Shown: positions 5,775-28,950, counted from the stretch's first letter. The stretch: 64,000 bases of DNA from an uncultured Nitrososphaerota archaeon (GCA_963799845.1 CAWCYI010000004.1:768001-832000), one strand, 5' to 3'. The notes: generated by a model from the letters alone, not told the origin. Made by a program: numbers and translations.

Positions 5775-7222
5775 GAGTTCTAATTCCTACAGCATTGAGG
5801 CAGTACACCGAAGGCTCGAAATCCCAGGTCAACGTTAGCGCAGACACCGTTTCCCAGGCCCTTGCGAAGCTTCTCGATGAAAACAAGAAACTAGCATCGC
5901 ACGTCGTCGACGAACAGGGAAACCTGAGAAATTTTGTCAACATCTTCCTGAACAACGAGAATGTCCGCGACCTCGATGGGCAAGACATCAAAGTCAGGGA
6001 ATCCGACACGATTAGAATAGTTCCCGCGATCGCGGGGGGATCTCATCTTCAGGACAAAAATCGGTTCATTCCTGACATCGACGAGCGGAAGATCACGATT
6101 ACTCCGAAAGAGTACCGCAGGTACGGGAGGCACCTGATAATTCCCGAGGTGGGCATGGAGGGTCAGAGAAGGTTGAAGGCTGCGAAGGTCCTAGTTATTG
6201 GAACCGGCGGTTTGGGTTCTCCCAGTTCCCTTTACCTGTCAGCTGCCGGCGTCGGGACAATCGGCCTCATCGACTTTGACGTCATCGATGAAACAAACCT
6301 CCACAGGCAGATACTCTACACAGAAAAGGACGTGGGAAGATCCAAAGTCCAGACCGCCAAGGAAAGACTGCAGCTCGCAAACCCCAACACGATAATCAAG
6401 ACATACGAAGAGCCGCTGAGTTCGGAAAATGCTCTAGAAATTTTCAAGGGCTACGACGTCATCGTTGACGGCACGGACAACTTTCCCACGAGGTACCTGA
6501 CAAACGACGCATGTGTTATTTTGGGCAAGCCGAACGTCTATGCGAGCATCTTTCGCTTCGAGGGCCAGGCAACAGTGTTTGATCCGAAAAACGGAGGCCC
6601 CTGCTACAGATGTCTGTACGCAAGGCCGCCCCCTCCAGGATTGGTTCCGTCGTGTGCCGAAGGCGGAGTCCTTGGTCTATTGCCGGGTCTCATCGGTCTG
6701 ATCCAGGCAACCGAGACAGTGAAACTAATCCTGGGTAGGGGAGAGCCACTCCTGGGTAGATTACTGGTTTACGACGCTCTGTCGATGACGTTTGATGAGC
6801 TCAAGATCAAAAAGAATCCAAAGTGCCCAGTCTGCTCGGCAGATCCGGAAATCACCAGCCTGATTGATTACGAGGCGTTCTGCGGCATCCAGAAAGAGCC
6901 GGACATCGCCTCAGTGCTACCGAAGCAGTTGAGCGAGGAAATCAAGAATGGGAAGAAGGTCATGCTGCTCGACGTTCGAGAACCTCACGAATGGGACATC
7001 GTCCACATCGAGGGCTCCAAGCTTATTCCGCTGGGAGATCTCGCCGAAAGGGTAAATGAGCTCGACTCCGCAGACGATATCGTCGCGTACTGTCACATTG
7101 GCGGAAGGAGCGCCAGAGCCACCGATTTCCTCAGGAGCCTCGGTTACAAGAAAGTGCGAAACCTCGAGGGCGGCATCGAAGCGTGGGCAGTGGAAGTAGA
7201 TCCATCTTTGCCACGGTACTAG
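5768..7222 (+). CDS. moeB: Fusion of MoaD/ThiS/CysO ubiquitin-like domain, MoeB/E1 adenylyltransferase and rhodanese (MoeZ-like)
   Basis: Ubl 5768-6040 ends IVPAIAGG; then RYGRHL, GTGGLG, DGTDNF, CYRC/CPVC zinc sites; C-terminal DVREPHEW...YCHIGGRS rhodanese. Confidence 0.9.
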   Translation: MVRVLIPTALRQYTEGSKSQVNVSADTVSQALAKLLDENKKLASHVVDEQGNLRNFVNIFLNNENVRDLDGQDIKVRESDTIRIVPAIAGGSHLQDKNRFIPDIDERKITITPKEYRRYGRHLIIPEVGMEGQRRLKAAKVLVIGTGGLGSPSSLYLSAAGVGTIGLIDFDVIDETNLHRQILYTEKDVGRSKVQTAKERLQLANPNTIIKTYEEPLSSENALEIFKGYDVIVDGTDNFPTRYLTNDACVILGKPNVYASIFRFEGQATVFDPKNGGPCYRCLYARPPPPGLVPSCAEGGVLGLLPGLIGLIQATETVKLILGRGEPLLGRLLVYDALSMTFDELKIKKNPKCPVCSADPEITSLIDYEAFCGIQKEPDIASVLPKQLSEEIKNGKKVMLLDVREPHEWDIVHIEGSKLIPLGDLAERVNELDSADDIVAYCHIGGRSARATDFLRSLGYKKVRNLEGGIEAWAVEVDPSLPRY

Positions 7223-11088: not shown

Positions 11089-11448
11089 ATGGCGCAACAG
11101 CTTATCGAGTCTAGACCTTCCGATTTATTCCTGAATAATCGATTGTATGGATGGCAAAAGCAGACAAGCGTCGAGGTTTTGCCGGCTTTGCCCCTGCGAA
11201 GAAAATCTGGAAAGCGTGCAATTCGCTCACAAGACGAAATCGAGGCGGCTATTCTGGATTCTTGCCGGACTCCTATCGTTCAGCACTGGATAATGGTGAA
11301 GGCAAGACTAGGCTATGACACTTTTTGGAAGCACATGAATCTCCTAATGATCGCCGGTCTGATGGAAGAGACGAGCGATGGGAGCAAGACCCTCTACCAG
11401 ACTAACGCCAAAGGGCTGGATGTCCTCGGCCGACTTGCCCTAGAGTAG
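11089..11448 (+). CDS. Archaeal winged-HTH regulator (HTH_45-like)
   Basis: RS..EI.AAIL......IM.KARL......HM..L...GL........Y.T..KG..VL. Confidence 0.75.
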   Translation: MAQQLIESRPSDLFLNNRLYGWQKQTSVEVLPALPLRRKSGKRAIRSQDEIEAAILDSCRTPIVQHWIMVKARLGYDTFWKHMNLLMIAGLMEETSDGSKTLYQTNAKGLDVLGRLALE

Positions 11449-12106: not shown

Positions 12107-13180
12107 TTGCCATCCGACACAACTTATGATGCAGATACGGTAGCAAGAATGGATGAAATGGCTGAAAGTGAAAAGATCGCAGCGATAATGCGAGCTGCAA
12201 GGCCCCAAGTCTCAGTGATTGGAGTCGGCGGCGCAGGCTGCAACATAGTCTCCTGGGTCAAGGAGAAGAAGGGCGGCATCTCCGGCGCGAAATTGATCGC
12301 GGCGAATACTGATGCGACGCACCTCAGCATAATCAAAGCGGACCGACGGATTCTGCTCGGCGAGAAGACAACTCGTGGAATGGGAGCAGGAGGGTACGCG
12401 GAGAGAGGTGCTGAAGCTGCTAGAGAATCAATCGAGCAGGTCAAGAAAGACACCGCAGGATCTAACATCATTTACGTTGCAACGGGACTTGGAGGAGGAA
12501 CCGGAACCGGAGCTTCGTGGGTTATTGCCAACGCGCTTCGACCGATGGGCGCATTGATGATTGGAGTCGTTACTCTTCCCTTTGCTGTTGAGAGATTCAG
12601 GTTCCAGAGCGCGAAGGAAGGACTACAGAAATTGAAGAGCTTCTGCGACACCGTCGTTGTCATCGACAACAACCGACTGGCGAAAGTCGCGGGCGACCTT
12701 CCACTCAAAGAAGCGCTAGGAGTTGCGAACGAGCTCGTGGGCGAGTTTGTCAAAGGAATCACCGAGACAATTACCACGGCGAGTTTGATCAACATCGACT
12801 TTGCGGACCTCAGGGCGATCATGGAGAAACGAGGAATTGCAGCTATCGGAGTCGGTGAGTCCACAGGCGATTCGAGAGTAGAGAGAGCCGTTCAGATGGC
12901 GCTTGACGCTCAGCTGCTCGATATCAAGGATGCCACGAAGGCCTTTGGTGTACTGATCCATGTCTCTGGTGGAGACGACATCACTCTAGACGAAGTTACC
13001 CAAGCAGGGGAGATGGTCACGAGATCTCTTCCGGCAAAGGCACGAGTTGTCTGGGGAGCCAGAGTTGACCCCACTTTGCAAGGAAAGGTCAGGGTCATGG
13101 TAGTCCTCACAGGTGTCGAGAGCACTTTTGCTGCGGAAAAAAGCGGCTCGATATCCCGGATGATCAGATCGAGATCCTAG
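12107..13180 (+). CDS. ftsZ: Cell division protein FtsZ (start may be ATG 12149 or 12158)
   Basis: VIGVGGAGCN, ANTD, GMGAGG, GLGGGTGTG signature, T7 loop LINIDFADL, VVWGAR.D...VMVVLTGV. Confidence 0.95.
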   Translation: MPSDTTYDADTVARMDEMAESEKIAAIMRAARPQVSVIGVGGAGCNIVSWVKEKKGGISGAKLIAANTDATHLSIIKADRRILLGEKTTRGMGAGGYAERGAEAARESIEQVKKDTAGSNIIYVATGLGGGTGTGASWVIANALRPMGALMIGVVTLPFAVERFRFQSAKEGLQKLKSFCDTVVVIDNNRLAKVAGDLPLKEALGVANELVGEFVKGITETITTASLINIDFADLRAIMEKRGIAAIGVGESTGDSRVERAVQMALDAQLLDIKDATKAFGVLIHVSGGDDITLDEVTQAGEMVTRSLPAKARVVWGARVDPTLQGKVRVMVVLTGVESTFAAEKSGSISRMIRSRS

Positions 13181-15006: not shown

Positions 15007-15336
15007 TCAAACCTCTGGCAAGAGCTTGAGATCTTCTTTGATCGAGACGTACTGTCTCAGGAGCATGAATCCCTTTTCCGTGAGCTTGTAGAGTCTTTTT
15101 CCATCACTGTCTTGAGAAACCACTAGTCCCTGAGTTTCGAGGTCTTTGATGTACCCCTGCATCACTGTCCACGACAAGTTAGCCCTATACATTATGTGGG
15201 TTGGTTTTTCAGCACCGGCCCCGATCGCTTTGACGATGTCGCAGTATGTTTCCATCTTGGATCGTCTGTTGAGTTGCTGCTGGCGTGGTTGCTGAGTCTG
15301 AGTTGTCTGTCCTTCTACTAGAGATGTGGTTTCCAA
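15007..15336 (-). CDS. Archaeal winged-HTH regulator (HTH_45-like)
   Basis: RRSKME.Y.DI..AI..G..KPTHIMYRANLSW......I..L...GLV.......Y.LTEKG. Confidence 0.9.
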   Translation of the reverse strand: METTSLVEGQTTQTQQPRQQQLNRRSKMETYCDIVKAIGAGAEKPTHIMYRANLSWTVMQGYIKDLETQGLVVSQDSDGKRLYKLTEKGFMLLRQYVSIKEDLKLLPEV

Positions 15337-15664
15337 TTCTGAGTTCTACTCCTGTCCTTTTCGATTATATCGTCAATAGATGTTCCCGGAATATATCCTT
15401 CCAAGCACGTTTTCGATAAGATAATTCGGATAGCTTCTGGAATTCGGCAACATTTCACTAAGATTTGAAATTCTCCGAGAAATTCGAACGAGCTGATCTC
15501 TGAGAAACATTTTCCCAAAACTACTGCTGAACAAGTCCGTAATTTAAGAATGAAAGGAAAATTCTAGAAAAGTTGAAGCTCAGCTCGATGGTTGCATCTG
15601 GCGAAGTTTCAACTCGGGACAGTTTTTGGCTCAAGCGCTAGTTGCAGAGCTTTCTAGAATCGCT

Positions 15665-16360
15665 CTAACCTGAAAACGCAAGTATGGATAACCCATTGGG
15701 AGTGAACGCGAGGCTGTGATAAGTCCTGTCGTGTTCTGTACCTCTCAACTTTTTGACGACAAACCTCGTTCTCATCTCCATTGATTCCGTCACGTAACTT
15801 TCGAGCTGGAAAATCCCGTCAGCCACAAATTCTTCTACGCCGGTTTGACGCGGTGAGTTTTTTGAAAAGTGCCTGGAGGCAGTCATCAAAGTTGTTATTC
15901 CCTCGCGCTTTAGCGTCTTGTATATCAGGTGCATCATGAAGGTATAATCGAACTTTTCCCCAGTTCCACTGAGAAAAGCCGTCAAGGAATCCACCACAAG
16001 TCGTTTGCCCTTGATCTCGTCCAATGCTTCAAGAAGAACCTGTATGTTTGAACTGAGGCCCCGTCCCTCAAGGGCTTCGAGGTCCAGCAGTTTCAATTTT
16101 TTCTTTGCCTCTAGCGCAGACAGGTCAAATCCAAATTTCATCATGTTCCTTTTGAGACTGCGGATGTCCTCCTCAAACGTAGCAAAGACCGCCGGCTCAT
16201 CCATCGTCAGAGCAGCGTTGTAAACAAACTCACATGAGAAAATAGTCTTGCCAGTACCCAGCCCGCCGATCAAGAGAACAAAATCTCCACGTTGCAATCC
16301 GCCCTGAATCATGGGGTCTAGACCTGGAATCCCAGTAGGAACGCGAGCGTCTTGATTCAA
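15665..16360 (-). CDS. KaiC-like single-domain ATPase 1 (alternative ATG at 16399)
   Basis: PTGIPGLD, Walker A GGLGTGKT, FEE, Walker B LVVDS, EEFVADG, KLRG. Confidence 0.9.
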   Translation of the reverse strand: MNQDARVPTGIPGLDPMIQGGLQRGDFVLLIGGLGTGKTIFSCEFVYNAALTMDEPAVFATFEEDIRSLKRNMMKFGFDLSALEAKKKLKLLDLEALEGRGLSSNIQVLLEALDEIKGKRLVVDSLTAFLSGTGEKFDYTFMMHLIYKTLKREGITTLMTASRHFSKNSPRQTGVEEFVADGIFQLESYVTESMEMRTRFVVKKLRGTEHDRTYHSLAFTPNGLSILAFSG

Positions 16361-16609
16361 TTCTAGCGATGCATCTCCTGAGCCTACTAAAAAATACATT
16401 GTTTAGGCTGCCAGCTCAGAGTGATCAGATTATTTCAATTGAATGGGAAATTCCTCAAAAGTGTAGTGCAAGTCTGAAGCACGGCTCCTTTTTGCTTAAT
16501 ACAATTTGAGACCATTTTTTCATTTTGATGCCCATAGAGATGCGGACAATAGGGTACTGTCGGTACTCGAAATCCGCGGGCAATCTTAGGGGAGACGTGT
16601 AAATCTCCC

Positions 16610-17485
16610 ATGCAAACAACGGTCGTTACTTCCAATCCCGCTTTTAGGGAAATCGTTTACGGCGGGCATTTGCTGGCCCTAGGGACCGCTAGCATCGCAG
16701 CGTCGAGTGCGATCATTCTTGGTCGTACTCCCAGCTTAATTCTCCTCGTTATGGCTTACCTTTTTTCTTACGGAGCTTACATGCTGAATAGAGGCTCCGA
16801 AGTAGCGCAGGACAGCGTCTCCGATCCCGCGAGAACAAATTACCTTCAGGGCCGCAGCAGATACCTGATGGTGATTTCCGGTCTCTGTTTCGGGATCGGA
16901 TATCTTCTAGCCGCGACCGTTAATTTGGTTTTTCTCGGTGCACTGTTGATCCCGCTCGTTCTAGCGGTTACCTATACCATCGGTTCGAAAAAACTGGTGT
17001 CGTTAATCGGCGCAAAACGACTCAAAGAGAAACTCCTCGTGAAAAATCTCGTCATCTCCTTTGGGTGGTCGCTCATTCCAGTTCTTGTTGGACTATATTA
17101 CAGGAGCGTTCCGATATTTCTCCTTGCGTTCGCTCCTTACATTTTCTTCAGGCTGATGTCGAACACTGTCTTCTTCGACCTACGCGACGTTAGAGCAGAC
17201 AGTGAGTTTGGGGTTCGAACTATCCCCGTTGTTTATGGAACCGGGTTAGCTTACAGGTTGATGACAATATTCGATTTTGTCTCCGCTGCTTACATCCTTC
17301 TGCTAGTCACATTTCGCCTATTTCCAACATTCACCCTTGTCATGATCTTGCTCCCCGCGTACTCTTTGATCTATAGACGGATCTCTCAGAGTCCTGGCGC
17401 AAATCTTGGATTGTTGTGCGATTTAGTCGCCGATGGTGAATACCTCCTATGGGGGCCCTTATTGTTCTTTGGAAAAATTATCTAA
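16610..17485 (+). CDS. UbiA-family membrane prenyltransferase
   Basis: Multi-TM; variant first motif NRGSEVAQD...P.R; RLKE..LVKN; second motif FDLRDVRAD...GVRTIPV. Confidence 0.85.
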   Translation: MQTTVVTSNPAFREIVYGGHLLALGTASIAASSAIILGRTPSLILLVMAYLFSYGAYMLNRGSEVAQDSVSDPARTNYLQGRSRYLMVISGLCFGIGYLLAATVNLVFLGALLIPLVLAVTYTIGSKKLVSLIGAKRLKEKLLVKNLVISFGWSLIPVLVGLYYRSVPIFLLAFAPYIFFRLMSNTVFFDLRDVRADSEFGVRTIPVVYGTGLAYRLMTIFDFVSAAYILLLVTFRLFPTFTLVMILLPAYSLIYRRISQSPGANLGLLCDLVADGEYLLWGPLLFFGKII

Positions 17486-18503
17486 GCTTGATAATCGGCT
17501 TCAAGGACGCCCCGTTGACCTAGATACTATTATCCAAAAATACCGCCTTGCCATTGAGAAGGCGATAAAGGAGACCGACCTAATCCAAGGGTCTCCCCTT
17601 AGCAAGGAAGCGAAGATAGTTATGGAAGCAGGTGGAAAGAGGCTTCGACCGGTACTCGTCCTTATGGGCTGCGAAGCAGTATCGGGTCAGTTCGAGACGG
17701 CGATACCCGCGGCGATGGCTTATGAGCTGGCGCATGAAGCATCCTTGGTGCAGGATGATATTTTCGATAACTCCGATTTGAGGCACGACAGGGAAACTGT
17801 TCACAAGCGGCAGGGGCTCATTATTGCGGTCCTCGTTTCCGATCTTATGATTTTCGAGATTTTTACTCAACTCGCAAAATACGAATCTTCGGAGCTGACG
17901 AAAGCCAAGCTCGCGAAATTGATGACGTACATTTCAAGAGCGGCAAATCTCACAATAAAGGGCGAGTTTCTTGAGGCAAAATACGCGACCAAATCAAGCT
18001 TTTCTGAGGAAGAATACCTTGAAGTTGCAAAGCTGAAGACTGGTTCGCTTCTTGCGGCAACGGCGGCTTCGGGTGCCCTGGTGGGTGGCGGAAGCGAGAA
18101 TATCGTCGACTCTATGTATCAGTTTGGACTGAACCTCGGAATCGCCTTCCAGATCAGGGATGACATCCTTGATGTCAGCGGAAACCAGGCGCAGCTCGGA
18201 AAGCCGGTGCTCAAAGATCTTCAAAACAACGTCTGCAATATAGTCTTGATCAACGCGCTCGAAAGAGGGGACGCGTATCATAAGAGCCAGATCAATTCAA
18301 TGCTTTACAAGAAATGGTTCGCTATGCCTGATGTCCAGAGCCTTCAGAGTTTGCTGAATGAACTGAAAGCCGTGGAATATGCTTCGAGCCTCGCCGAGAG
18401 ATATACCTCACTGAGCAGAGAATGCTTGGCGTCATTACGAGAATCACCTGTTAAGGATAAACTTCTCGGCCTGACCTACGCACTTGAGACGAGGAAAATC
18501 TGA
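17469..18503 (+). CDS. trans-polyprenyl diphosphate synthase
   Basis: GGKRLRP, FARM DDIFD, KTGSL, SARM FQIRDDILD, GKP..KDL; TTG start overlaps the ubiA-like stop. Confidence 0.9.
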   Translation: MEKLSKLDNRLQGRPVDLDTIIQKYRLAIEKAIKETDLIQGSPLSKEAKIVMEAGGKRLRPVLVLMGCEAVSGQFETAIPAAMAYELAHEASLVQDDIFDNSDLRHDRETVHKRQGLIIAVLVSDLMIFEIFTQLAKYESSELTKAKLAKLMTYISRAANLTIKGEFLEAKYATKSSFSEEEYLEVAKLKTGSLLAATAASGALVGGGSENIVDSMYQFGLNLGIAFQIRDDILDVSGNQAQLGKPVLKDLQNNVCNIVLINALERGDAYHKSQINSMLYKKWFAMPDVQSLQSLLNELKAVEYASSLAERYTSLSRECLASLRESPVKDKLLGLTYALETRKI

Positions 18504-18566
18504 CCCAAATGATAAAGATAAATGTGATAGAAGCGTCCGGCGTGCAAGGGAGACTCTGACAAGGTC

Positions 18567-19253
18567 TTGAGCGAGAGCACACTGTTGAAAGCGGATAGAA
18601 TACCGACCGGGATAAATGGACTGGATGGGCTGATCCAGGGGGGACTGATGCGAGGAGATGTTCATCTTATTACCGGGGGCCCCGGGACGGGAAAGACGAT
18701 CCTGGCATCGCGATTTGTTTTCAATGCCGCCAAGAATCTAGGGGAACGAATAGTGTATGCGACATTTGAAGAATCTTCGGAATTTTTCAAGAAAAATCTT
18801 GCAAAGCTTGGAACCGATTTTTCCTCTCTCGAGAAGGAAGGAAAAGTCAAAATTATCGATCTTGAGATCCTCCGGGGAAAAGGTTTGGAGTCGAACATAT
18901 CATATGTAATTGAGCTCGTAGCAAAGGCCAGAGCTTCGATTCTGGTGATAGATTCGCTGACCGCGCTTTTACTTGCGTGCGAGACTCAGTTTGAGCAGAG
19001 GACTTTCATGAAAACGGTTTACAAATCGCTAAAGGCAAAAGATGTGACCACCGTGATGACCGTCAGTCTTGATGAGGACGGTACGGTCGGTTCGGAGGGC
19101 TTCATGTCGGACTCGGTGATGTTTCTAGAAAATTGGGTTGACAAGAATCAGTTCAAGACGAGATTCCTCATTCAGAAGATGAGGGGAACTGATCACAGCA
19201 GGAGATATCACAGTTTCACGCTTGGCCCAGACGTATCGGTATCCAGGTTTTAG
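18567..19253 (+). CDS. KaiC-like single-domain ATPase 2
   Basis: PTGINGLD, GGPGTGKT, FEE, LVIDS, KMRG. Confidence 0.9.
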   Translation: MSESTLLKADRIPTGINGLDGLIQGGLMRGDVHLITGGPGTGKTILASRFVFNAAKNLGERIVYATFEESSEFFKKNLAKLGTDFSSLEKEGKVKIIDLEILRGKGLESNISYVIELVAKARASILVIDSLTALLLACETQFEQRTFMKTVYKSLKAKDVTTVMTVSLDEDGTVGSEGFMSDSVMFLENWVDKNQFKTRFLIQKMRGTDHSRRYHSFTLGPDVSVSRF

Positions 19254-19262
19254 ATTGATGCG

Positions 19263-20690
19263 ATGGCTATCAATTCGGCGGCACTCGTTGTTCCAGCAAT
19301 AGACCTCGGTACACTCATTCTAACTGCTCTGTCAGGATATTACGTATCCAGGCAGAGCACTACACTTTACAAAGAAGTTAAGACGCTCCTTCTGTACGTC
19401 CATGTTTTCTTTGGTGGAGTGCTCGTCCTTGAATTCATAAGAAACTTTGTTCCGACCGTAACCCCGTATTCGCAGACAGCCATTATTTTCATGGATATCT
19501 ACACCATCCTCGGAACTAGCTTTATCCTCTGGGATGTCCTGCTGCTGATGACCGTTGGCGCGGCGGTATACATCAAACCTGAAGGTCAGGGATTAAGAGA
19601 ACTTCTGGTCGCGATTATTCGACGGAAAAATACCGGGGTCGTCTACATGATAGTTGCCGCGTTCGTTCTCGGATCCGATATCTATCTCGCATTTGTATCG
19701 CCGTTCACCATAGTAAGTGTCCAGAACATTGCGGGAATCACAGTTTTATCGACACAGTTCGATCCCAGTTATTTGATTCTTGTTCTAATTGTCCTTCTGC
19801 TTTTCCTGACTTACCCTACGACGTTGTTCATTCTCGCAAGAATGAAGACGAAAGACAAATCTGTCCGAAGAGCTCTACTTCTGTTACCAATCGTGTGGAG
19901 CGGAATCGGAGTAGACCTCGTAATTTTCAATGGTTTCTTCCTCTCGGAGGGACAAGATTACGTAGCGGTAGGATATCTCTTTGCTTCGATAGCCTTCGCG
20001 GTGACCGCAACTATTTTCAGAAGGGCGTCCTTATTATCTGGATTCTTCGGTCCTATCTCGGATTTGCAAATTAAGACATCGACACCGACGTACCCGTTTT
20101 CGAACTCGATCAAGATCGATCCTCAAACCCTGATCGGGCGAACCTTTCTATTTTTGACAGATCCTTCAACACCGTACGAAAGGGTGGTCGATGATCTCTG
20201 CATCGAGCTCCTGTCGAACAAGTGCTACGCGTTCGTATTTACCTCAAAGCGGAGTCCAATACAGACCTCACTATCAAAAGTAAAAGGAGTCAGGTATTAC
20301 ATTTTGACTTCCTCTGTATCCTACCCCCGAGGGACCGACGTACCCGACGAAATTCTGGTTCCACAGAATGATCAGGCCATACTTCTCGACATCATTCAGA
20401 AAACTATTCAGAACGATCCGGAATCGAAACTGGGAATCATTTACGACAACATTTCAGATATGATCCTGTCCTCCAGCGTTGAGAGTGCTTACAAGTTTCT
20501 GAAACAGGCAAACGAGATAATCGATCCGAAGAGAGTCATGGCGATGTTTCTCTTTACTCCTGGAGCTCACGATGACCGGACAGTAAACTTGGTGAAAGCG
20601 CTCTTCGCAAATCACATCGCGATGAACAAGGATGTTCCGCAACTAGCTGAGATAGAATGTACTTTGCAGCAACTCGGCGTTTCGAGCTGA
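19263..20690 (+). CDS. Seven-TM membrane sensor fused to a DUF835 (inactive KaiC-like) domain
   Basis: Seven hydrophobic helices, then a P-loop-less domain with IIYDNISDMIL...AYKFLK...AHD......VKALF; true stop may be 20655. Confidence 0.75.
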   Translation: MAINSAALVVPAIDLGTLILTALSGYYVSRQSTTLYKEVKTLLLYVHVFFGGVLVLEFIRNFVPTVTPYSQTAIIFMDIYTILGTSFILWDVLLLMTVGAAVYIKPEGQGLRELLVAIIRRKNTGVVYMIVAAFVLGSDIYLAFVSPFTIVSVQNIAGITVLSTQFDPSYLILVLIVLLLFLTYPTTLFILARMKTKDKSVRRALLLLPIVWSGIGVDLVIFNGFFLSEGQDYVAVGYLFASIAFAVTATIFRRASLLSGFFGPISDLQIKTSTPTYPFSNSIKIDPQTLIGRTFLFLTDPSTPYERVVDDLCIELLSNKCYAFVFTSKRSPIQTSLSKVKGVRYYILTSSVSYPRGTDVPDEILVPQNDQAILLDIIQKTIQNDPESKLGIIYDNISDMILSSSVESAYKFLKQANEIIDPKRVMAMFLFTPGAHDDRTVNLVKALFANHIAMNKDVPQLAEIECTLQQLGVSS

Positions 20691-20909
20691 GCCGCAGACA
20701 GGTAAAACAAGCTGTTTCAATTGAACAGAGCTTGATTTATCACCGTCAGCCGAACAGTGATCTTTTTCACCGTTAGGTCGAACAGAACCGAATTTTTTCT
20801 ATATAAGGATCAATGAGAGGTAGTATATGAAGAACTGTAGAAAACAACCCGAGTCAAGAAACAGGTTGCTCCTTGTTAAAGCGCGTGATTATTTATCACG
20901 GTAAGAGAA

Positions 20910-22013
20910 TCAGTTTTCGACTTTGGCGCTCTGGGCTTCCAGAGCTGGCGTCGGCGACTGCATCTGCAACAGTCTCCAGCCGCGCTCGCGGTCGTAGAGC
21001 TCATCTGGAACGTTGAGGAATTGAGTCTTCGTGGGATCTAAGATTATCATTTCTTTCTTCGTGGCAAGAAGGGAAGTATATGTGTCAAGGTACGACACTG
21101 TCTCGTGGAAATACTCCAGCGGAACATCCATGAATGCGAAATAACCCCTATTCTCAAAAGCGGCTTCAAGCAAAGTAAAGGGAATCTTGTTGCAAAGTTT
21201 TCTCACTGAATTCAGCTCCTCGGGTTCCAGACCCTTGAAAATTACGGCAATCTGCATTATCTCGGGAGTTCTGCCCGCGACCAGTCCCTTCGTCCAACGA
21301 ACGTTATTTCCGAGAATGAGCTTGCCCTTCTGAACGTGCTCGGCGTAGTGGTATCTGATCGTTCTCGCGTTTGCTCCCAGATTCTTTGCTATCTTCGAGG
21401 GGCTTATCGTGGGATCCTCCTGCATGTACCTCAGGATTTTCGTGTCGATATAGTCCACCTTCGCATCAGTGTTTACCAGGTGCGACGTCGGTCCCATCTC
21501 TGTCTGGGTCATGTCTACCCTCTTCCAATCGACCTTCCATCTGCCGCTGTCCAGGTCGAAGAATTCCGATCTCATGGGAGGGTACCTTATCCACGAGATC
21601 TCGGTGGACTCGAACTCATCGACCAATCCGAGGTTTTGCAATTCAGTTATCGAGTCGAGGTACTTTTTCTTGAAGCGGTTAGGCAGTGCGTACAGGCAAA
21701 CATATTTTTCCTGTCCCATGACCTTGCTGATGAGAATCAGGTAACTAGCACGATCGAGCCAAGTCCTACCGGCGTTCTGATCAGGCTTTACGACCAGCAT
21801 CCCCATCGTGAATCCAAGTTGAGCATAGTCAATGTTTACAAGAATGCCTAAACCAAGTTTGCCCAGCTGCTTGTTGACTTTATACCGGACTGTTTCCGCA
21901 CTAAGTCCGGTGAGTCTCGCGATGAGGGAATAATTTGAAACACCAACTTGCCTGATCGTTTCTATCAACAGGTACTCTGTGGTGCGGGATATGCCACCGC
22001 CGCTATCAGACAA
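20910..22013 (-). CDS. Lrp/AsnC-like regulator with two HTH units
   Basis: NYSLIARLTGLSAETVRYKV and DYIDTKILRYMQ.....SKIAKNLG..ARTIRYHY. Confidence 0.75.
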   Translation of the reverse strand: MSDSGGGISRTTEYLLIETIRQVGVSNYSLIARLTGLSAETVRYKVNKQLGKLGLGILVNIDYAQLGFTMGMLVVKPDQNAGRTWLDRASYLILISKVMGQEKYVCLYALPNRFKKKYLDSITELQNLGLVDEFESTEISWIRYPPMRSEFFDLDSGRWKVDWKRVDMTQTEMGPTSHLVNTDAKVDYIDTKILRYMQEDPTISPSKIAKNLGANARTIRYHYAEHVQKGKLILGNNVRWTKGLVAGRTPEIMQIAVIFKGLEPEELNSVRKLCNKIPFTLLEAAFENRGYFAFMDVPLEYFHETVSYLDTYTSLLATKKEMIILDPTKTQFLNVPDELYDRERGWRLLQMQSPTPALEAQSAKVEN

Positions 22014-22239
22014 TTGGGTAAAGACATAGTTTAGGTCATGAAGGGCGTATAAATCGAAAATGAAGTCGGGATACAGATCCAGACTAGGCTTTTGATATAT
22101 ATCGCCAAATCATATTATGCTCTAAGAAATTAATTTGCCGTTTTATCTCAAAGTGGAGACTAGCGTTGTGGGAAAGATGACAACAGAGATAACTACGCAG
22201 CGCGATATTTCTACCATTACTCTGGTTAGTGCTTAATCA

Positions 22240-22989
22240 TTGGAAACAAAAGAGCAGCAGCAGTTCCCTTCATTTGCTAACGTACTGAAGCCGAGTGCCG
22301 GCGTTCGCATCCCCACCGCGATACCCGGACTGGATCCGTTGATTCAGGGAGGTCTCAACCGCGGGGATTTCATTCTCCTGTCTGGAGGAGTAGGCGCAGG
22401 CAAGACTACATTCTCCTGCCAGTTTGCTTACAACGGAGCGACGTTCCTCAACGAGCCCGCGGTGTTTGCAAGTTTTGAGGAAGATTCGCTCAGTCTGAAG
22501 CGAAATATGCTGAGATTCGGCATGGATCTTGAAACTCTCGAAAGAGACGGGAAGATCAAGATCATGGACCTCGAGATCCTCGAAGGTCAGGGGATGGGCT
22601 CAAACATGGAGGTATTGCTCAGCGCTCTGGACAAGATTCAGGGGAAGCGATTGGTCGTTGACTCGCTCACCGCGTTCCTCACCGGCGCGAAGGACAAGTT
22701 CGATTACAGATTCCTGATGCACCTGATCTACAAGACTTTGAAACGGGAAGGGGTCACGACGATGATGACGATAAGCAGGATGCAGAACGATAGCCAGATT
22801 CTCGGCGTCGGTCTGGAAGAGTTTGTCGCCGACGGTATTTTCCAGCTCGAGAGCTACGTGACTGAAACGATGGAGCTGAGGACGCGGTTCTTGGTCAGGA
22901 AACTCAGGGGCTGCGATCACAGCCGGAAGTATCACTCAGTAGCCTTTTCTCACGAGGGCATCCAGATTCTACCCTGGTCGTCGTCCTGA
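22240..22989 (+). CDS. KaiC-like single-domain ATPase 3 (close paralog of ATPase 1)
   Basis: GGVGAGKT, FEE, LVVDSLTAFL, MHLIYKTLKREG, EEFVADGIFQLESYVTE, KLRG shared with 15665-16360. Confidence 0.9.
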   Translation: METKEQQQFPSFANVLKPSAGVRIPTAIPGLDPLIQGGLNRGDFILLSGGVGAGKTTFSCQFAYNGATFLNEPAVFASFEEDSLSLKRNMLRFGMDLETLERDGKIKIMDLEILEGQGMGSNMEVLLSALDKIQGKRLVVDSLTAFLTGAKDKFDYRFLMHLIYKTLKREGVTTMMTISRMQNDSQILGVGLEEFVADGIFQLESYVTETMELRTRFLVRKLRGCDHSRKYHSVAFSHEGIQILPWSSS

Positions 22990-23314
22990 GACATCCGCTC
23001 AGCTAAATTTTCAAGCCGCAGAGCTAGCCTTGCGTCTCCCCACAGGATTTCGGGTACGTGCAAAAGACCTGCGTACCTCAATGACGTCCAAAACCGATGT
23101 GCTCTAAACAGAAATATTGAAACCAAGCTGTTGTTGGCCAGCAGACCTTGAAACGATCTCTTCGGTACCCAGAATTGCACCGTTGCGCACACGTGCAAAA
23201 TTCGCATAATAAATCAATGAAAGTGAAACTATTGGCTTTAGGAAGTTAGTTAGGTCCACAGGTACGAGAAGAAGACCTGGATCAGTATGCCCTAAAATAT
23301 CGTGAAAAATGCAC

Positions 23315-25912
23315 TCATACTGGAGAAGTCAGTGCAGTGGATTCCAAGACTCCCTGATCCGTGGTCAAAGTAATCAAGTAATGCTGATTTGTGTTCCAAG
23401 AAAATGAAGTCAGAGGAGCAGATAACTGCTCACTGGGCCCCAGCTCGAAATCAAAACTTCCGATTACTCCTAATGCCGAGGAATTTGTGTCATAGTGCAC
23501 TAAGGTGGCAGAGACGGTATTGTAGATGTACAGACTGATCAGATGGACTGCGAACGGACTGTTATTAACAGCCGTAATCACCGGGATCGACGCGAATCTG
23601 ACGTTGAAAGGGCTGGAAGAGCCGCTTGTCCACACCGCCCCGCTGCCTCCGTACGTTGATGACAGACCCGCAATGGAGGTCTCCGATGAACTCACGGTCT
23701 GGATCGAGCTCCACGAATTGCCGAAATTCGTGCTGTAAAGCGTGGAAAGGGTGGTCCCCGAGCCGTAGAATACGATGAGTGTCTCGGATGGTTCCTGGGA
23801 GATTGAAGTCAACCACCCCGAGCTTGAGCTCTGAAGTTGCGTTTCAGACGATGTTGCTGAAGCGCCGTTCGCAAAGCTCCAAAAATTAACCGTACCCGAT
23901 ATAACCCCAGTACTACCTGAAGCTAATCCTACAAAATATAGAGTGTTGCCGATCGCCGTTGCTGATGAGGAGAAGAGCATGTAATCTGACGATGGCGAAA
24001 CCGGACTTGACCAGCTTGCACCAGTTGTAGTCGTAATAACGTTGACCGCAGCTGTTACACTGCCCTCTCCGTATATTAGGGCAATGCCATTCGAGAGAGG
24101 TACAAGAATCGGTGTAATGTCCGCTGGCTGGGGGGAGATGTCGTCTTCCTTCGCCCAAGAGCCCGATGAATACTTCCAGACTTCAATGTGCGCATTGGTT
24201 CCGTCGTTGGTGTTGAGGGCTACCCAGACGTTTCCGGAAGAATCGGTGACTATCGAATCGTAGGAACTAACCTTGTTCGTCGTGGACACTGTAGTCTGCG
24301 AGATCGCCCAGTTAATTGTTCCACCGGATTGTAGTGCCCCGTATCGCCAAGAGAATGACGCGCTCTGTTTCGCTGCATCTAAAACGTAGTAAAAGGTGTT
24401 CCCGCTGACCCAGATGTTGAAATTGTAACCGTCGGTAGAATCGGCGGATGAAGTCAAGATAGTCTCACTGCTCCAGACCGACCCGTCGGCCGAGGTGCGA
24501 TAACCAATGTTTGTGCCGTCGCTGTAGAACGCCCACCACAATCCCTGTGAGTAAACGAGCTTGTGTTGAAAGTCGTAAGAAGTAGCAGTGCCCGTGGTGA
24601 CCAGTGCAGCGAAGCTCGTGCTCGGCATGACACCATTCGGCGGGTAGAACCGGGCCCTATTCCAATTGAAATAGATACTGACGGCTGAAGAGCCACCTAT
24701 CGCTCCCAGATAGAGGTGAGTTGCTGCGCTGAGTGGGTTGTTTGTTTCTGTGGCAGTATAACCACCTGTCGTTGAATAGAGCTGGGGAGCATCATACGCG
24801 CTCCACGAGGTCGAGCTCGTCCCTGGGTAAGTCACACTGCCGTACACCCAAGTTCCCGCCGCTGGCACTGCTCCTGCTCCATTTACAGGGATTGTCACCG
24901 CGCCAGAGATGTCGTAAGCTTGGAAGAAATAGTCACTACCAAATCCCATACCCATGCCGATTCCATTGTTCGTACCCGATGCCGTTGCTGCGTTCATCAG
25001 TCCTGTGACGCCTGTTCCATCAGCTGTATCTGCGGCTAGTGCAAAGCTCGACTCTGTAATTATTCCTACATTGCTCAAAGCTGTATTGAACACGAAGGCA
25101 GGGGCATGAGCACCGGAGGTGCCAGAGATTTGAATTGCGTTTATAGTTGCTCCTCCCGGCCCGATAACGCCAGTTGCCTTTGCTACCGTCAGTCCGGCAT
25201 AAACTGAAAATCCCGAGGTCGCCGTATTGCCGTTGAAATATGCCGCAAAGACACTGGCTCCGTTATCATATTGGCCGTATGTCGCTGACAAACTTGGGGC
25301 CTCTCCCCAGTAGTTGTCATCGAAATTGGTAGATGTAGGTTGGAAGACCATGTATATTATGAGTGTCCCACCACTTGCTGATATCGATGATGTCAGTTTG
25401 ACCCAGACGGTTGCTGACGTCGCTGCTGTTGTACAGGAAGGAGTACACGATTCCAGCCAGGCAAAAAGTTGAGTATTGCACGCGTAATCCTGGCAGAATC
25501 TTATGTTGCCCAAGTTGGAAGCCTCGATTGTTGAATCCGAAGATGGATTGAAAACTATCATTTGTTGAAAAGTCGTTGGAGTCGCGGACGTCTGACTATT
25601 CGTTATCGTTATAGGGATGTAGGCTGACTGTGACGATGATGTCGTAATTGTGTTCGCACTTGCCCCAAAAGTTAGCTGTGAAATGTCAAGTGAAGTCTGA
25701 TCCTGCTGTTGCACTGAGTGATCGTACTGCAGCAACTTAGAGTTGTAGTTATTGTAATATCCGAAAATCGTGGTAATAGTTGTCAGCCCTAACATTAGGA
25801 TAAGTACGAAAATGAGAGTGCCGATTACGGTCGATACGCCCGATCTTCTATTGCCAAGAGCTCTCCTGTGAAAGTGTTTTTTCCTTGATAAAATGGGGCT
25901 AGATGCTTGCAT
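23315..25912 (-). CDS. Large adhesin-pilin: class III signal peptide, DUF2341-like module, BNR/propeller-like region, pilin C-terminal strands
   Basis: NRRSG|VSTVIGTLIF; NLGNIRF...WLES...WVKL; S.DG..WS and STNFGNSW Asp-boxes; C-terminal YLITLTTDQG. Confidence 0.75.
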   Translation of the reverse strand: MQASSPILSRKKHFHRRALGNRRSGVSTVIGTLIFVLILMLGLTTITTIFGYYNNYNSKLLQYDHSVQQQDQTSLDISQLTFGASANTITTSSSQSAYIPITITNSQTSATPTTFQQMIVFNPSSDSTIEASNLGNIRFCQDYACNTQLFAWLESCTPSCTTAATSATVWVKLTSSISASGGTLIIYMVFQPTSTNFDDNYWGEAPSLSATYGQYDNGASVFAAYFNGNTATSGFSVYAGLTVAKATGVIGPGGATINAIQISGTSGAHAPAFVFNTALSNVGIITESSFALAADTADGTGVTGLMNAATASGTNNGIGMGMGFGSDYFFQAYDISGAVTIPVNGAGAVPAAGTWVYGSVTYPGTSSTSWSAYDAPQLYSTTGGYTATETNNPLSAATHLYLGAIGGSSAVSIYFNWNRARFYPPNGVMPSTSFAALVTTGTATSYDFQHKLVYSQGLWWAFYSDGTNIGYRTSADGSVWSSETILTSSADSTDGYNFNIWVSGNTFYYVLDAAKQSASFSWRYGALQSGGTINWAISQTTVSTTNKVSSYDSIVTDSSGNVWVALNTNDGTNAHIEVWKYSSGSWAKEDDISPQPADITPILVPLSNGIALIYGEGSVTAAVNVITTTTGASWSSPVSPSSDYMLFSSSATAIGNTLYFVGLASGSTGVISGTVNFWSFANGASATSSETQLQSSSSGWLTSISQEPSETLIVFYGSGTTLSTLYSTNFGNSWSSIQTVSSSETSIAGLSSTYGGSGAVWTSGSSSPFNVRFASIPVITAVNNSPFAVHLISLYIYNTVSATLVHYDTNSSALGVIGSFDFELGPSEQLSAPLTSFSWNTNQHYLITLTTDQGVLESTALTSPV

Positions 25913-25937: not shown

Positions 25938-28457
25938 CTAGCTTGGGGAAGTTAGAGTCGAGGAAAAAACTACTCCCTGATCTGTTGTTACGGTGATGAT
26001 ATAATTCTGACTTGTAGTCCAAGCAAATGAGCTAAGAGGGATTGACATAGTTTCGCCAGCCCCTATCTGATTATCGAAACCAGCGCTTACTCCGGGCGCA
26101 GAAGAATTTGTGTCGAAATGAACTAGGGTATTAGTAACAGTGTTCAAAATGTACAAGCTAATCATGTGGACTGCGAACGGACTGTTATTGACGGTACTAA
26201 AAGTCGGAATCGCGGCAAATCTAACGTTGAAGGGACTAGAGCTCCCACTCGTCCAGAGTGCAGCACTTCCCCCTTCTGCAGAATTGACTCCAGTGACCGA
26301 TGTCTCGGAAGAGCTGATAGTTTGAATGGATGACCAGGTCGTACCAAAGTTGAGACTGGAGAGCATGTACAGATTCGATCCAGCTCCGTAAAATACAACA
26401 AGCGTTTTCGAAGGCTCTTCGGATATCGAAACCGACCAGCCGGAAGTAGTTCCCTGTAACTGTGTTTCGGACGATGTAGAACCCGCCCCACTGGTAAAAG
26501 TCCAAAAATTAAGAGCCCCAGTAGTCGCCCCAGCACTACCTGAGGCCAGTCCGGCAAAATACACAGTGTTTGTGATCGAGTCCGCTGAAGATGAAAACAA
26601 TGAATAATCGGATGGAGGTGAAACCGCTGCGCTCCAGCTAGAGCCCGTAGCACTCGTGATTATCCTAACGGGGGCGGTTACACTTCCTTCTCCATAGATC
26701 AAAGCAACCCCTGATGAGAGCGGAACTAGCATCGCCATCTCGTCAGTTGAAAGCGGAGAAATGTCATCGACTTTGCTCCACACTGCCGCGGAGTATCTCC
26801 AAACTTCAACATGAGTATTAGTACCATCATTAGTATTTAGGGCGACCCAGACGTTCCCGAAAGAATCCGTTGCCATCGAGTCGTAGGAATAAACAGTGTT
26901 TGTGGTGGTGACTGTCGTCTCCGAAATCGTCCAGCTAATCGTCCCTGAACTCTGGAGGGTTCCATAACGCCACAGGAAGGATGCACTCTTGCCATATCCT
27001 GTCAAAACGTAATATATCGTGTTGCCACTTGTCCATATGCTGAAGTCGTAACCTTTCGTTGAATCGGTCGATGAACTGACTGTCGTGGGGCTGCTCCAGA
27101 CTGAACCATCCGGAGACGTTTCGTACGCGATGTTTGTACCGTCACTGTAAAACGCCCACCACAACCCTTGGGCATAAACTAGTTTGTTCTGCGCGCTGTT
27201 CGAGGTCGCGGTTCCAGTGGGAATAACTAATGCGGCAAAGGCGGTTGTCGGCATGACGTTGCTAGGCGGATAGGCTCTCATTCTCGCCCAGGTGAACGTG
27301 CTGCTTGACTGAACTCCGTTTGGTTCTCCAATATAGATACCATAGTTTGCAATCGCAACCCCGTTGTTACTCCCCGTATAGGTGTTCCCGACGCCGTCGC
27401 TGAAGTATTGTGTAGCCGTTGCGGACCAGGTGACTTGCCAAATCCCTGCGGGGAATGACGCTTGGGCGGTCGTGTGAAGGTTGGTATGGGTACCTGAAGC
27501 CTGATACGTCATGTGATCGTCGCCGCTGGCCCAATTTAACGAATAGCCAGAGTAAAGAGCAGTAAAACTGTTGGTACTTTGTGTGGTTGCAACTCCGAGA
27601 ATCGAATTTCCGCTAGCGGTATAGGTTTCAGCGACAAGTGGGTACGTCTGAGTAGCGGACACTATGAAGCCGTAACCCGCACTCGTAGTGAGAGTGACTG
27701 TCAGACCGTTGTTCACCGTAATGGTTGCTGAACTCGTGATTGATGTCCACTTGGCGCTTAATGAGCTACCAGCAAAATTATCGTAAAACGTGAAGACGTT
27801 GGCACCGTTGTCATATTGGCCATACGTACCGGAAATGCTCGGGGCCTCGCCCCAGTAGTTGTCATCGAAATTTGTGGTAGTGGGCTCGAATACCATATAG
27901 ACTATCAGAGTTCCACCGCTTGCCGCTATCGAAGATGTTAATTTGACCCAGGCGACGGCAGACGTTGCGGAGGTCACACAAGAAGGCGTGCACGATTCCA
28001 ACCAAGCAAAAAGCTGCTTAGAGCAAAAGGTATCTAGACAGAATCGAATGTTTCCCAAATTCGAGGCCTCGTACGTTGAATAGGTAGAGGGATTGAAGGT
28101 AATCCTCTCTTGGAAAGTGGTCGGTGTTCCAGATGACTGACTATTAGTGATCGTGATCGCGACGTAAGCTAAGGATGCGCTGGTTGAAGTTGCAATCGTA
28201 TTTGCACTCGCCCCAAATGTAAACCCGGATATCGAGAGAGAAGTCTCGCCTCTCTGGAGGGCCGACTGATTGTACTGGAGGAGCTGAGAGTTGTAGCTAT
28301 TGTAGTAACTGAATACAGCCGCAATTGTCGTTAGTCCGGTGAGCAGGATTAGGACGAAAATCAAAGATCCGATTACGGTGGAGATACCCAGTCTGCGATT
28401 CTTGGACCGAAATTCTTTCGGCTCGGCTTCATAGGTCACACGGCTAAGCCTTGGCAT
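25938..28457 (-). CDS. Large adhesin-pilin, tandem paralog
   Basis: KNRRLG|ISTVIGSLIF; same architecture as 23315-25912. Confidence 0.75.
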   Translation of the reverse strand: MPRLSRVTYEAEPKEFRSKNRRLGISTVIGSLIFVLILLTGLTTIAAVFSYYNSYNSQLLQYNQSALQRGETSLSISGFTFGASANTIATSTSASLAYVAITITNSQSSGTPTTFQERITFNPSTYSTYEASNLGNIRFCLDTFCSKQLFAWLESCTPSCVTSATSAVAWVKLTSSIAASGGTLIVYMVFEPTTTNFDDNYWGEAPSISGTYGQYDNGANVFTFYDNFAGSSLSAKWTSITSSATITVNNGLTVTLTTSAGYGFIVSATQTYPLVAETYTASGNSILGVATTQSTNSFTALYSGYSLNWASGDDHMTYQASGTHTNLHTTAQASFPAGIWQVTWSATATQYFSDGVGNTYTGSNNGVAIANYGIYIGEPNGVQSSSTFTWARMRAYPPSNVMPTTAFAALVIPTGTATSNSAQNKLVYAQGLWWAFYSDGTNIAYETSPDGSVWSSPTTVSSSTDSTKGYDFSIWTSGNTIYYVLTGYGKSASFLWRYGTLQSSGTISWTISETTVTTTNTVYSYDSMATDSFGNVWVALNTNDGTNTHVEVWRYSAAVWSKVDDISPLSTDEMAMLVPLSSGVALIYGEGSVTAPVRIITSATGSSWSAAVSPPSDYSLFSSSADSITNTVYFAGLASGSAGATTGALNFWTFTSGAGSTSSETQLQGTTSGWSVSISEEPSKTLVVFYGAGSNLYMLSSLNFGTTWSSIQTISSSETSVTGVNSAEGGSAALWTSGSSSPFNVRFAAIPTFSTVNNSPFAVHMISLYILNTVTNTLVHFDTNSSAPGVSAGFDNQIGAGETMSIPLSSFAWTTSQNYIITVTTDQGVVFSSTLTSPS

Positions 28458-28950
28458 TTGTTACCACCGTATTGCCTAACTGCGTCGCTATGATGAAACT
28501 GTACGTCGTGCCAACGTCCGGGGTAAAGGTAACCGCGATAATCTGGAATGATCCAGAGTTGATCTGCTTTGTGGGAGAGAGGGTATAGGACAGAACAAAT
28601 TTGCTTGCCGTGACATTAGTGATGTAAACAGCGGCAACTATTGTCGGGTTCACTCCATCGTTTCGAACGTACAGATTCACGCCGAGCTTCGATCCAGTTT
28701 CGTTGAACGTTACTTGTTCTACTACCACCCTTTCAGACAGAGCATTTGCTGAATTACCGAACAGATTGGACAAATTCGAACCCAGTCCCGAAAACCCATT
28801 CGTAGCATAGGCAAAGATCGTGGCAGAAAGTCCGACAACTATGACGATCATCAGAAGGGAAGCGATTATTTCGCTGATTCCTTGTTTCTTTCTTCTGCGA
28901 GTTCTATTCGAGATTTCAAAATAGCCTGATCTCGAATATCTTCCTGTCAA
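28444..28950 (-). CDS. Archaeal type IV pilin
   Basis: RRRKKQG|ISEIIASLLMIVIVV; LYVRNDG; YSFIIATQLGN. Confidence 0.85.
   Translation of the reverse strand: MTGRYSRSGYFEISNRTRRRKKQGISEIIASLLMIVIVVGLSATIFAYATNGFSGLGSNLSNLFGNSANALSERVVVEQVTFNETGSKLGVNLYVRNDGVNPTIVAAVYITNVTASKFVLSYTLSPTKQINSGSFQIIAVTFTPDVGTTYSFIIATQLGNTVVTNAKA

Follow-up and report, generated by a model that had tools for sequence, protein, structure and literature searches.

The window analysed here is a stretch of 64,000 nucleotides from the genome of an uncultured Nitrososphaerota archaeon (G000:C4:768001-832000; positions below are counted from its first nucleotide). The source assembly is archaeal, comprises 4.6 Mb on nine contigs, and is 86.7% complete. 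Positions 15007 to 22989 hold a module in which a UbiA-superfamily prenyltransferase and a trans-isoprenyl diphosphate synthase (IDS) are combined with KaiC-like ATPases, a seven-transmembrane (7TM) protein with an inactivated KaiC-like (iKaiC) domain, and DNA-binding regulators. From the conservation of this linkage, a signalling circuit centred on a special membrane lipid is suggested. All open reading frames (ORFs) named in a first-pass annotation of the window were found at the coordinates given there, and the module comprises the following features:

15007-15336, minus strand: winged helix-turn-helix (wHTH) regulator of the HTH_45 family, 109 amino acids (aa; PF14947, 70.4 bits)
15665-16399, minus strand: KaiC_A, single-domain KaiC-like ATPase, divergent from the operon (PF06745, 170.7 bits)
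16400-16609, no strand: divergent promoter region with a conserved GAAGCnnGnCTCC element (intergenic alignment)
16610-17485, plus strand: divergent UbiA-superfamily prenyltransferase ("N-R type"; hereafter UbiA), 291 aa (PF01040, 55.5 bits)
17433-18503, plus strand: IDS, 356 aa, overlapping UbiA (PF00348, 205.8 bits)
18567-19253, plus strand: KaiC_B, operonic single-domain KaiC-like ATPase, 228 aa (PF06745, 157.2 bits)
19263-20690, plus strand: 7TM receptor with a C-terminal iKaiC (DUF835/DUF7504-like) domain, 475 aa (AlphaFold2 [AF2] model, Foldseek)
20910-22013, minus strand: regulator predicted to be of the tandem Lrp/AsnC fold ("HTH24"), 367 aa (HTH_24, 38.1 bits; HTH_AsnC, 34.8 bits)
22240-22989, plus strand: KaiC_C, paralogue of KaiC_A, divergent from the HTH24 regulator (PF06745, 174.8 bits)

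UbiA, IDS, KaiC_B, and the 7TM gene had been described in the first-pass annotation as one tight co-directional unit, which was borne out. The UbiA and IDS genes overlap by 53 nt with ATG at 17433 as the start codon of IDS (17 nt if TTG at 17469 is the start), IDS and KaiC_B are separated by 63 nt, and KaiC_B and the 7TM gene by 9 nt. Three of the 18 KaiC-family matches of the genome are packed into these 7.3 kb, and the set of genes, but not its flanks, recurs in 30 species loci; the grouping thus exceeds chance. Scanning for bacterial-type promoters and terminators, a procedure not applicable to archaea, returned counts equal to shuffled expectation.

A scan of one genome per species yielded 32 loci, 30 of which stem from metagenome-assembled genomes (MAGs) of Nitrososphaerales, Nitrososphaeria, or Thaumarchaeota, or from MAGs with uninformative titles; UbiA of these 30 is 50-74% identical to that of the window. 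The loci were searched with 14 proteins of the window, and only those with enough flanking sequence were counted as testable. IDS adjoins UbiA in all testable loci (29/29), the 7TM-iKaiC gene lies inside the cluster in all (25/25), and a divergent KaiC of the A/C type is found within 4 kb of UbiA in all (29/29). An Lrp-like regulator is present in 25 of 27, usually directly 5′ of UbiA and on the same strand, KaiC_B is present in 18 of 25, and a homologue of the wHTH regulator lies in or beside the module, on either side, in most species loci. The commonest order is KaiC< | regulator> UbiA> IDS> [KaiC_B>] 7TM-iKaiC>, with the wHTH gene alongside. The window's genus has a rearranged form of it, in which the regulator is located downstream and the divergent KaiC is duplicated. 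Altogether, the linkage extends over three families or more and reaches a second order-level group, and the module, whose conservation the first-pass annotation had named as a point to be checked, is thus kept across genera and families. The genes flanking it in the window (GtrA-like, FtsZ, DUF2299, a small pilin-like ORF, and two large pilin-like proteins) recur in none of the 30 loci, and in a comparison of nine loci the sole matches outside the module were two pilin-like paralogues, in locus L035. That the module genes are conserved while the flanks differ indicates that the module travels as one block from one genomic context to another. In locus L042, UbiA directly precedes its own 7TM-iKaiC paralogue, and an IDS-KaiC-7TM-iKaiC group lies 4 kb away; the parts apparently stay paired after reshuffling.

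An orthologue of the module's UbiA occurs in 14 of 41 related genomes (genus, 5/6; family, 8/12; sister genus, 2/5), a tally that counts G000 and the unpublished genome G001; the conclusions do not depend on the latter. In a class-wide sample, 4 of 151 genomes including G000 encoded an orthologue; one further family had it in 3/9 and the largest family in 0/80. What recurs is a conserved, portable module of seven families, belonging to Nitrososphaeria that are not of the ammonia-oxidiser type and found in soil, peat, and groundwater assemblies. A search for amoA gave no match; the control genomes were equally silent, hence this result is uninformative.

Several individual loci showed further features. 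In L055 (10644-14476), KaiC_B and 7TM-iKaiC are separated by a 4.5-kb insert encoding a MoxR/CbbQ-type AAA ATPase and, on the opposite strand, a 563-aa ORF. In L036 (2407-11313; genome G029), UbiA and the gene for a CruF-like "carotenoid biosynthesis protein" (PF04240) point away from each other, and a KaiC gene converges on UbiA. An Aenigmatarchaeota MAG (L067, 7977-12748) carries two UbiA genes that agree with the window's subfamily in the N-R motif and in the D-x-x-A-D-G-E at the C terminus; the pair flanks a geranylgeranyl-reductase-like (GGR-like) gene and adjoins a KaiC gene. Among 61 genomes sampled from that MAG's class, just two yielded a UbiA of the N-R type.

The UbiA protein of the window scored above the Pfam cut-off (PF01040, 55.5 bits versus 34.2; 55 bits in the whole-genome search) and below the cut-off of every NCBIfam subfamily. 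The best of these was PRK13591 (48.6 of 238); scores for digeranylgeranylglyceryl phosphate synthase (DGGGPS, PRK12882), MenA, and ChlG were 21.7 of 296, 19.1 of 277, and 20.0 of 313, respectively. Its sole sequence match in the PDB was chlorophyll synthase (E 0.002). UbiA enzymes have two Asp-rich motifs for Mg-diphosphate. The first, which usually has the form N-D-x-x-D-x-x-x-D, reads N60-R61-x-x-E64-x-x-x-D68 and is conserved in the orthologues; Asp is exchanged for Arg at position 2 and for Glu at position 5, where one orthologue retains Asp. The second motif, D190-x-R192-D193-x-x-x-D197, is invariant among them. UbiA is thus probably active, with a conservatively altered variant of motif 1. 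In IDS (PF00348, 205.8 bits), both the first aspartate-rich motif (FARM; DDIFD at residue 108) and the second (SARM; DDILD at residue 243) are intact. With these and motif 2 of UbiA preserved, the two enzymes look active.

The nearest solved structure to IDS is the geranylgeranyl diphosphate synthase (GGPPS) of P. horikoshii (1wy0, E 5e-41), but the protein scored below the cut-offs of all NCBIfam GGPPS/IdsA models. In archaeal type I C20 GGPPS, a bulky aromatic residue five positions before FARM halts elongation at C20, a rule that reportedly comes from the mutagenesis literature of Ohnuma and Nishino. At this position, IDS has Ala rather than an aromatic residue, and Ala at -5 with Ser at -4 was found without exception in the 25 sequences, of 26 examined, whose first motif could be detected; the matching residue is Tyr in 1wy0 and Trp in the genome's own GGPPS-like paralogue. 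Under the chain-length rule, the product is predicted to be longer than C20, and it would accordingly be membrane-bound rather than diffusible.

The genome contains six UbiA-family genes and four IDS genes in all. Besides that of the module, the UbiA family is represented by two heme O synthases (above cut-off), one DGGGPS-like, one MenA-like, and one 460-aa fused form, and the DGGGPS-like and MenA-like copies match the DGGGPS and MenA models far better than the module's UbiA does. Because housekeeping-type UbiA genes and other IDS genes lie elsewhere in the genome, UbiA and IDS of the module are accessory enzymes, and the tallies of the module in other genomes (14/41 relatives; sister genus, 2/5; largest family, 0/80) agree with this status. 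The first-pass annotation had asked whether housekeeping prenyl enzymes exist outside the module, and the GGPPS-like, DGGGPS-like, and MenA-like copies answer this in the affirmative.

The Pfam scores of the 475-aa receptor were all below threshold and confined to its C-terminal third (DUF835, 19.4 of 33.1; DUF7504, 24.6 of 27; DUF7090, 21.3 of 27); some orthologues carry precomputed matches to PF24336, PF23365, or PF05763. An AF2 model built from an alignment of 23 rows (pLDDT 85.5, pTM 0.69) contained seven long transmembrane (TM) helices, a β-hairpin between TM4 and TM5, and a RecA-like C-terminal α/β domain. When compared with known structures using Foldseek, the C-terminal domain was closest to FlaH (4yds, E 4.7e-4), with further matches to KaiC (7s65 and 7v3x) and PH0284 (2dr3). 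The helical bundle gave weak matches of the rhodopsin/GPCR (G protein-coupled receptor) type (E 1e-4 to 4e-3, TM-score 0.3-0.56 on target). Despite the subthreshold Pfam hits, the model and the fold matches uphold the earlier designation of the protein as 7TM-DUF835. At the position of the KaiC P-loop, members of the receptor family carry D-P-S-T-x-Y-E, and this replacement of Walker A identifies the C-terminal domain as an inactivated KaiC. Elsewhere, the same 7TM part is fused to MEDS, and the same iKaiC domain to MEDS, HTH_45 (P0139), and VWA; these fusions support a modular role in signalling and tie the wHTH family to iKaiC. At E≤1e-3, the 7TM-iKaiC family falls into 469 representative clusters, a number that drops to 205 at E≤1e-30, and the named matches of the 7TM part are all "hypothetical protein" from Nitrososphaerota. 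The genome has two members in total. The second (G000:C4:1530407-1532949; L069, 8407-10949) is 44% identical to the first and is followed by a 292-aa KaiC, and the pair is divergent from five ORFs without Pfam matches.

KaiC_A, KaiC_B, and KaiC_C matched PF06745 with 157-175 bits. In their alignment, Walker A (GGPGTGKT), the Glu pair (F-E-E), and Walker B (D-S-L-T-A) are retained; the conserved motifs of KaiC_B are GGPGTGKT, FEES, and VIDS. They are not circadian KaiC proteins, as each has a single domain and their NCBIfam KaiC scores are far below the cut-off. The orthologue of KaiC_A at the same-genus locus L028 matches KaiC_C at 66%, and in other species a single divergent KaiC is about equally similar to KaiC_A and KaiC_C. 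The three-KaiC arrangement highlighted in the first-pass annotation is therefore real in the window but confined to its genus, other species having one or two. Structure prediction for a complex between residues 285-465 of the receptor (the iKaiC domain) and KaiC_B had a score of 0.00 and a mark of 0.32; made without controls, it is evidence neither for nor against an interaction.

The HTH24 regulator exceeded the cut-off for its second repeat (HTH_24, 38.1 bits; HTH_AsnC, 34.8 bits), and its residues 178-316 matched the Lrp/AsnC regulator PH0140 in a PDB profile search. Its AF2 model (pLDDT 79.6) contained two HTH and two β-α-β (RAM) units; the best Foldseek match was the tandem Lrp-fold protein NirDL (4ch7, E 6.5e-10), followed by many single Lrp/AsnC regulators. 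Judged by this model, HTH24 is a tandem Lrp/AsnC-fold protein with a RAM fold of the ligand-binding type, for which DNA binding is predicted. The earlier description of a double-HTH regulator holds with respect to the two HTH units, now attributable to a tandem Lrp/AsnC fold, but the downstream, convergent placement is atypical: the operon of most species begins with the regulator gene. A further small wHTH gene of the HTH_45 family is located at 11089-11448 (plus strand), about 3.5 kb upstream of that of the module.

An alignment of six intergenic regions from the same genus or family revealed GAAGCnnGnCTCC at 16476-16488, just 5′ of a TATA-like TTAATA (about 16497-16503); the leader holds a GGTACT-GTC-GGTACT repeat. 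The window contains one exact site, and with one mismatch four were found versus 4.5 expected, which corresponds to chance. The element was not found in the second divergent intergenic region of the module, and exact copies at the promoter are restricted to close relatives of the window, more distant loci having none there. GAAGCnnGnCTCC was rejected as an operator motif on account of the chance-level count and the lack of a promoter site in distant loci.

Beyond the module, three genes on the minus strand (23315-25912, 25938-28457, and 28444-28950) encode proteins whose N termini, read by eye, carry class-III-type (type IV pilin-like) signal peptides, with R-R-x-G-[IV]-S-T-V-I-G ahead of a hydrophobic helix, and with K-K-Q-G-I-S-E-I-I. 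Two of them are paralogues of about 850 aa and one has 168 aa; one gave a weak DUF2341 match. They are likely pilin-like adhesins, as their N-terminal sequences suggest. The adhesin-pilin neighbours noted in the first-pass annotation are accordingly real as pilin-like proteins, but they are not constant neighbours of the module, a homologue being located close to it in just one of nine loci (L035). Elsewhere in the window, 5645-7222 (plus strand) encodes a fused ThiS-ThiF-rhodanese protein of 525 aa, 12107-13180 (plus strand), upstream of the module, is a gene of the FtsZ/tubulin family, and 39508-49017 (minus strand) is a single ORF of 3,169 aa with raised GC content (0.53-0.56) and strong positive GC skew.

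Gene content, catalytic motifs, loss of the receptor P-loop, folds, accessory status of the enzymes, and linkage are observed, and they can be accommodated in a lipid-coupled KaiC feedback circuit acting in cis. In this circuit, IDS would lengthen an allylic diphosphate past C20, and the N-R-type UbiA would place the chain on an acceptor in the membrane, yielding a specialised prenyl-lipid that is not diffusible. The 7TM domain of the receptor would read this lipid, or a membrane property altered by it, in the same cell, its inactive KaiC-like domain would hand the state to the active KaiC ATPase(s), and the Lrp-type and wHTH regulators would govern operon transcription, perhaps along with that of other targets. 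This mechanism is favoured tentatively, as a possible rather than a probable account. The narrower proposal that a GPCR-like 7TM receptor has the dedicated prenyl-lipid as its physiological ligand and gates an active KaiC ATPase through its inactive KaiC domain appears unlikely. If true, it would be the first lipid-signal circuit of archaea, a receptor-to-transcription pathway made up wholly of KaiC-family parts, with the ligand synthase encoded in the same operon.

A number of observations weigh against a feedback circuit of this kind. The direction of information flow is not deducible from gene linkage. The genome's second 7TM-iKaiC/KaiC pair has no prenyl genes nearby, so that the receptor family needs none adjacent to it, and the receptor tree, which leaves its deep forks unresolved, does not set linked copies apart from unlinked paralogues. 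KaiC_B is absent from 7 of 25 testable loci. In the most divergent instance (L036; UbiA 43%), KaiC is next to UbiA, but no 7TM-iKaiC was detected by tblastn, and IDS is 4.7 kb away, beside the gene for a 482-aa V4R-domain protein. No acceptor-making gene is conserved within the module across the species loci compared, and the "RRG" that usually follows FARM in trans-IDS enzymes reads R-H-[DNGS] in most IDS orthologues of the module and R-R in a few. The sequencing runs covering 15600-23000 are four DNA runs from one soil study, and no RNA run is listed.

The findings on the module fit equally well a membrane homeostat of the DesK-Des type, in which the 7TM-iKaiC/KaiC system senses another physical or chemical cue (such as temperature, pH, membrane thickness, or redox state) and controls the prenyl enzymes, and a structural or protective lipid is the regulated output, itself not sensed. 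The conservation data are the same for both, the second 7TM-iKaiC/KaiC pair without prenyl genes is what would be expected of a general sensor family, and the variable presence of the module within a genus (2/5 in the sister genus) would fit niche adaptation; the probably long chain, moreover, suits a membrane constituent. However, in most species regulator, enzymes, ATPase, and receptor form one close co-directional unit, so that sensor and output would be induced together, which is more typical of an autoregulatory loop than of a constitutive sensor with a separate target. A pure output role is considered somewhat unlikely, if a serious contender. The first-pass annotation had proposed that the operon makes a lipophilic ligand and encodes its receptor and relay, in the manner of a synthase-receptor quorum-sensing pair or of a membrane-state sensor controlling piliation. 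As a quorum signal, the lipid would be released and picked up by 7TM receptors on neighbouring cells, perhaps with piliation under its control. The account of gene content and co-directional unit holds, and neither of the outcomes named there as refuting (a linkage not kept in relatives, or no other prenyl enzymes in the genome) was seen. Synthase, receptor, relay, and regulator do share a probable operon, as in known autoinduction loops, with pilin-like adhesin genes adjacent in this genome. The link to pili is not conserved, however, being seen in one of nine loci and not a feature of the 30 species loci; a product with the predicted chain beyond C20 would be too hydrophobic to diffuse freely, and no export gene is conserved in the module. 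Quorum sensing is thus distinctly doubtful and less likely than the cis-acting lipid-coupled circuit.

Tight gene order with probable translational coupling (the overlap and the 63-nt and 9-nt gaps), the direct pairing of UbiA with a 7TM-iKaiC paralogue in L042, and the structural proximity of iKaiC to FlaH, an accessory subunit of a membrane machine, might instead indicate that KaiC_B and 7TM-iKaiC are no signalling chain but a membrane scaffold and ATP-driven regulatory subunits acting directly on UbiA and IDS, for example in assembly, substrate channelling, or post-translational control. Two DNA-binding regulators are conserved in the module, though, the 7TM and iKaiC parts recombine with sensor and HTH domains elsewhere, and the second 7TM-iKaiC copy exists without the enzymes, which together make such a complex quite improbable. 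Finally, the prenyl pair could have been captured next to a KaiC island in an ancestor and co-inherited ever since without any functional link; all instances bar one distant case are in one class, and relatives are not independent samples. Yet order and spacing are retained at protein identities as low as 42-59% amid differing flanks, and the parts stay paired through rearrangements (L042, L053/L063, and the window's genus). Mere co-inheritance hence seems very improbable. An anti-phage defence system was rejected, as PADLOC gave weak, partial HTH and P-loop matches (E 4e-6 to 8.5e-4). A carotenoid or bacterioruberin-type pathway, to which the CruF-like gene of L036 points, is no more than a lead: the PF04240 genes of this 86.7% complete genome are more than 100 kb away, and it gave no match to phytoene synthase (PF00494).

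Even without a choice among these mechanisms, the module is of interest. KaiC-like ATPases are regarded as the principal signalling hubs native to archaea, and to our knowledge almost none of their inputs or outputs has been described. The module is a defined and testable case, consisting of a compact gene set, a probable membrane ligand with its synthesis genes, a 7TM sensor, and two candidate transcription factors, and it marks an uncharacterised UbiA subfamily (the N-R motif) together with an IDS whose product is predicted to exceed C20. Both enzymes occur in soil Thaumarchaeota that are abundant yet uncultured and whose lipids serve as environmental biomarkers. Should the product prove to be a new lipid, it might affect the reading of soil lipid records and bear on the membrane adaptation of these archaea.

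The arrangement resembles several known systems in part. In Bacillus subtilis, the multi-TM sensor DesK and its regulator DesR adjoin the lipid-modifying des desaturase and form a feedback loop on membrane state; the module likewise encodes a multi-TM sensor and regulators beside lipid enzymes. It differs in having no histidine kinase or response regulator, the relay presumably being KaiC/iKaiC plus Lrp/wHTH, in the predicted prenyl-lipid product, and in that sensor and enzymes share one operon. The autoinduction units agrBDCA and luxI/luxR encode signal synthesis, receptor, and regulator together, and the union of biosynthetic enzymes, membrane receptor, and transcription factor in the module similarly suggests feedback, be it positive or negative. 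None of its components is homologous to theirs, however, and its predicted long-chain product is unlikely to be freely diffusible. Archaeal pairs of an IDS with a UbiA protein include the geranylfarnesyl diphosphate synthase for methanophenazine in Methanosarcina and the pathway of DGGGP synthase. Here too, a medium-chain trans-IDS adjoins UbiA, whose weak best NCBIfam matches are models of archaeal prenyltransferases. In contrast to these carrier and lipid pathways, the module scores far below the cut-offs of the respective models (GFPS_Meth, PRK12882/12884), has the N-R form of motif 1, and coexists with housekeeping copies elsewhere in the genome. Genes of microbial rhodopsins are clustered with those for carotenoid and retinal synthesis, which supply the lipid cofactor of the 7TM protein, and the module also combines a 7TM protein, the bundle of which is weakly rhodopsin/GPCR-like, with isoprenoid enzymes; unlike rhodopsins, this 7TM protein has no Pfam rhodopsin match and no Lys in TM7, and the genome has no PF00494 match.

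The closest relationship is to archaeal KaiC-like ATPases as "signal transduction hubs" that include inactivated KaiC domains (DUF835, MEDS), a proposal of Makarova, Galperin & Koonin (2017) in the form summarised in PMC5847659, which counts iKaiC/DUF835 and MEDS among signalling output domains. A full-text search found no published description of such a hub joined to UbiA and IDS; the 2017 survey and its supplements lie outside that search, and a listing in its arCOG tables is possible. A genomics paper on Gagatemarchaeaceae contained no text on KaiC or UbiA, and PMC5852551 has both words in unrelated passages. Like the hubs in that summary, the module has single-domain KaiCs beside a membrane sensor with an inactivated KaiC-like domain and wHTH regulators. 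Unlike those described there, its hub forms part of an operon that also encodes a dedicated pair of UbiA and IDS. The module would thus represent a new form of KaiC-based signalling, assembled from known families and coupled to the synthesis of a specialised prenyl-lipid.

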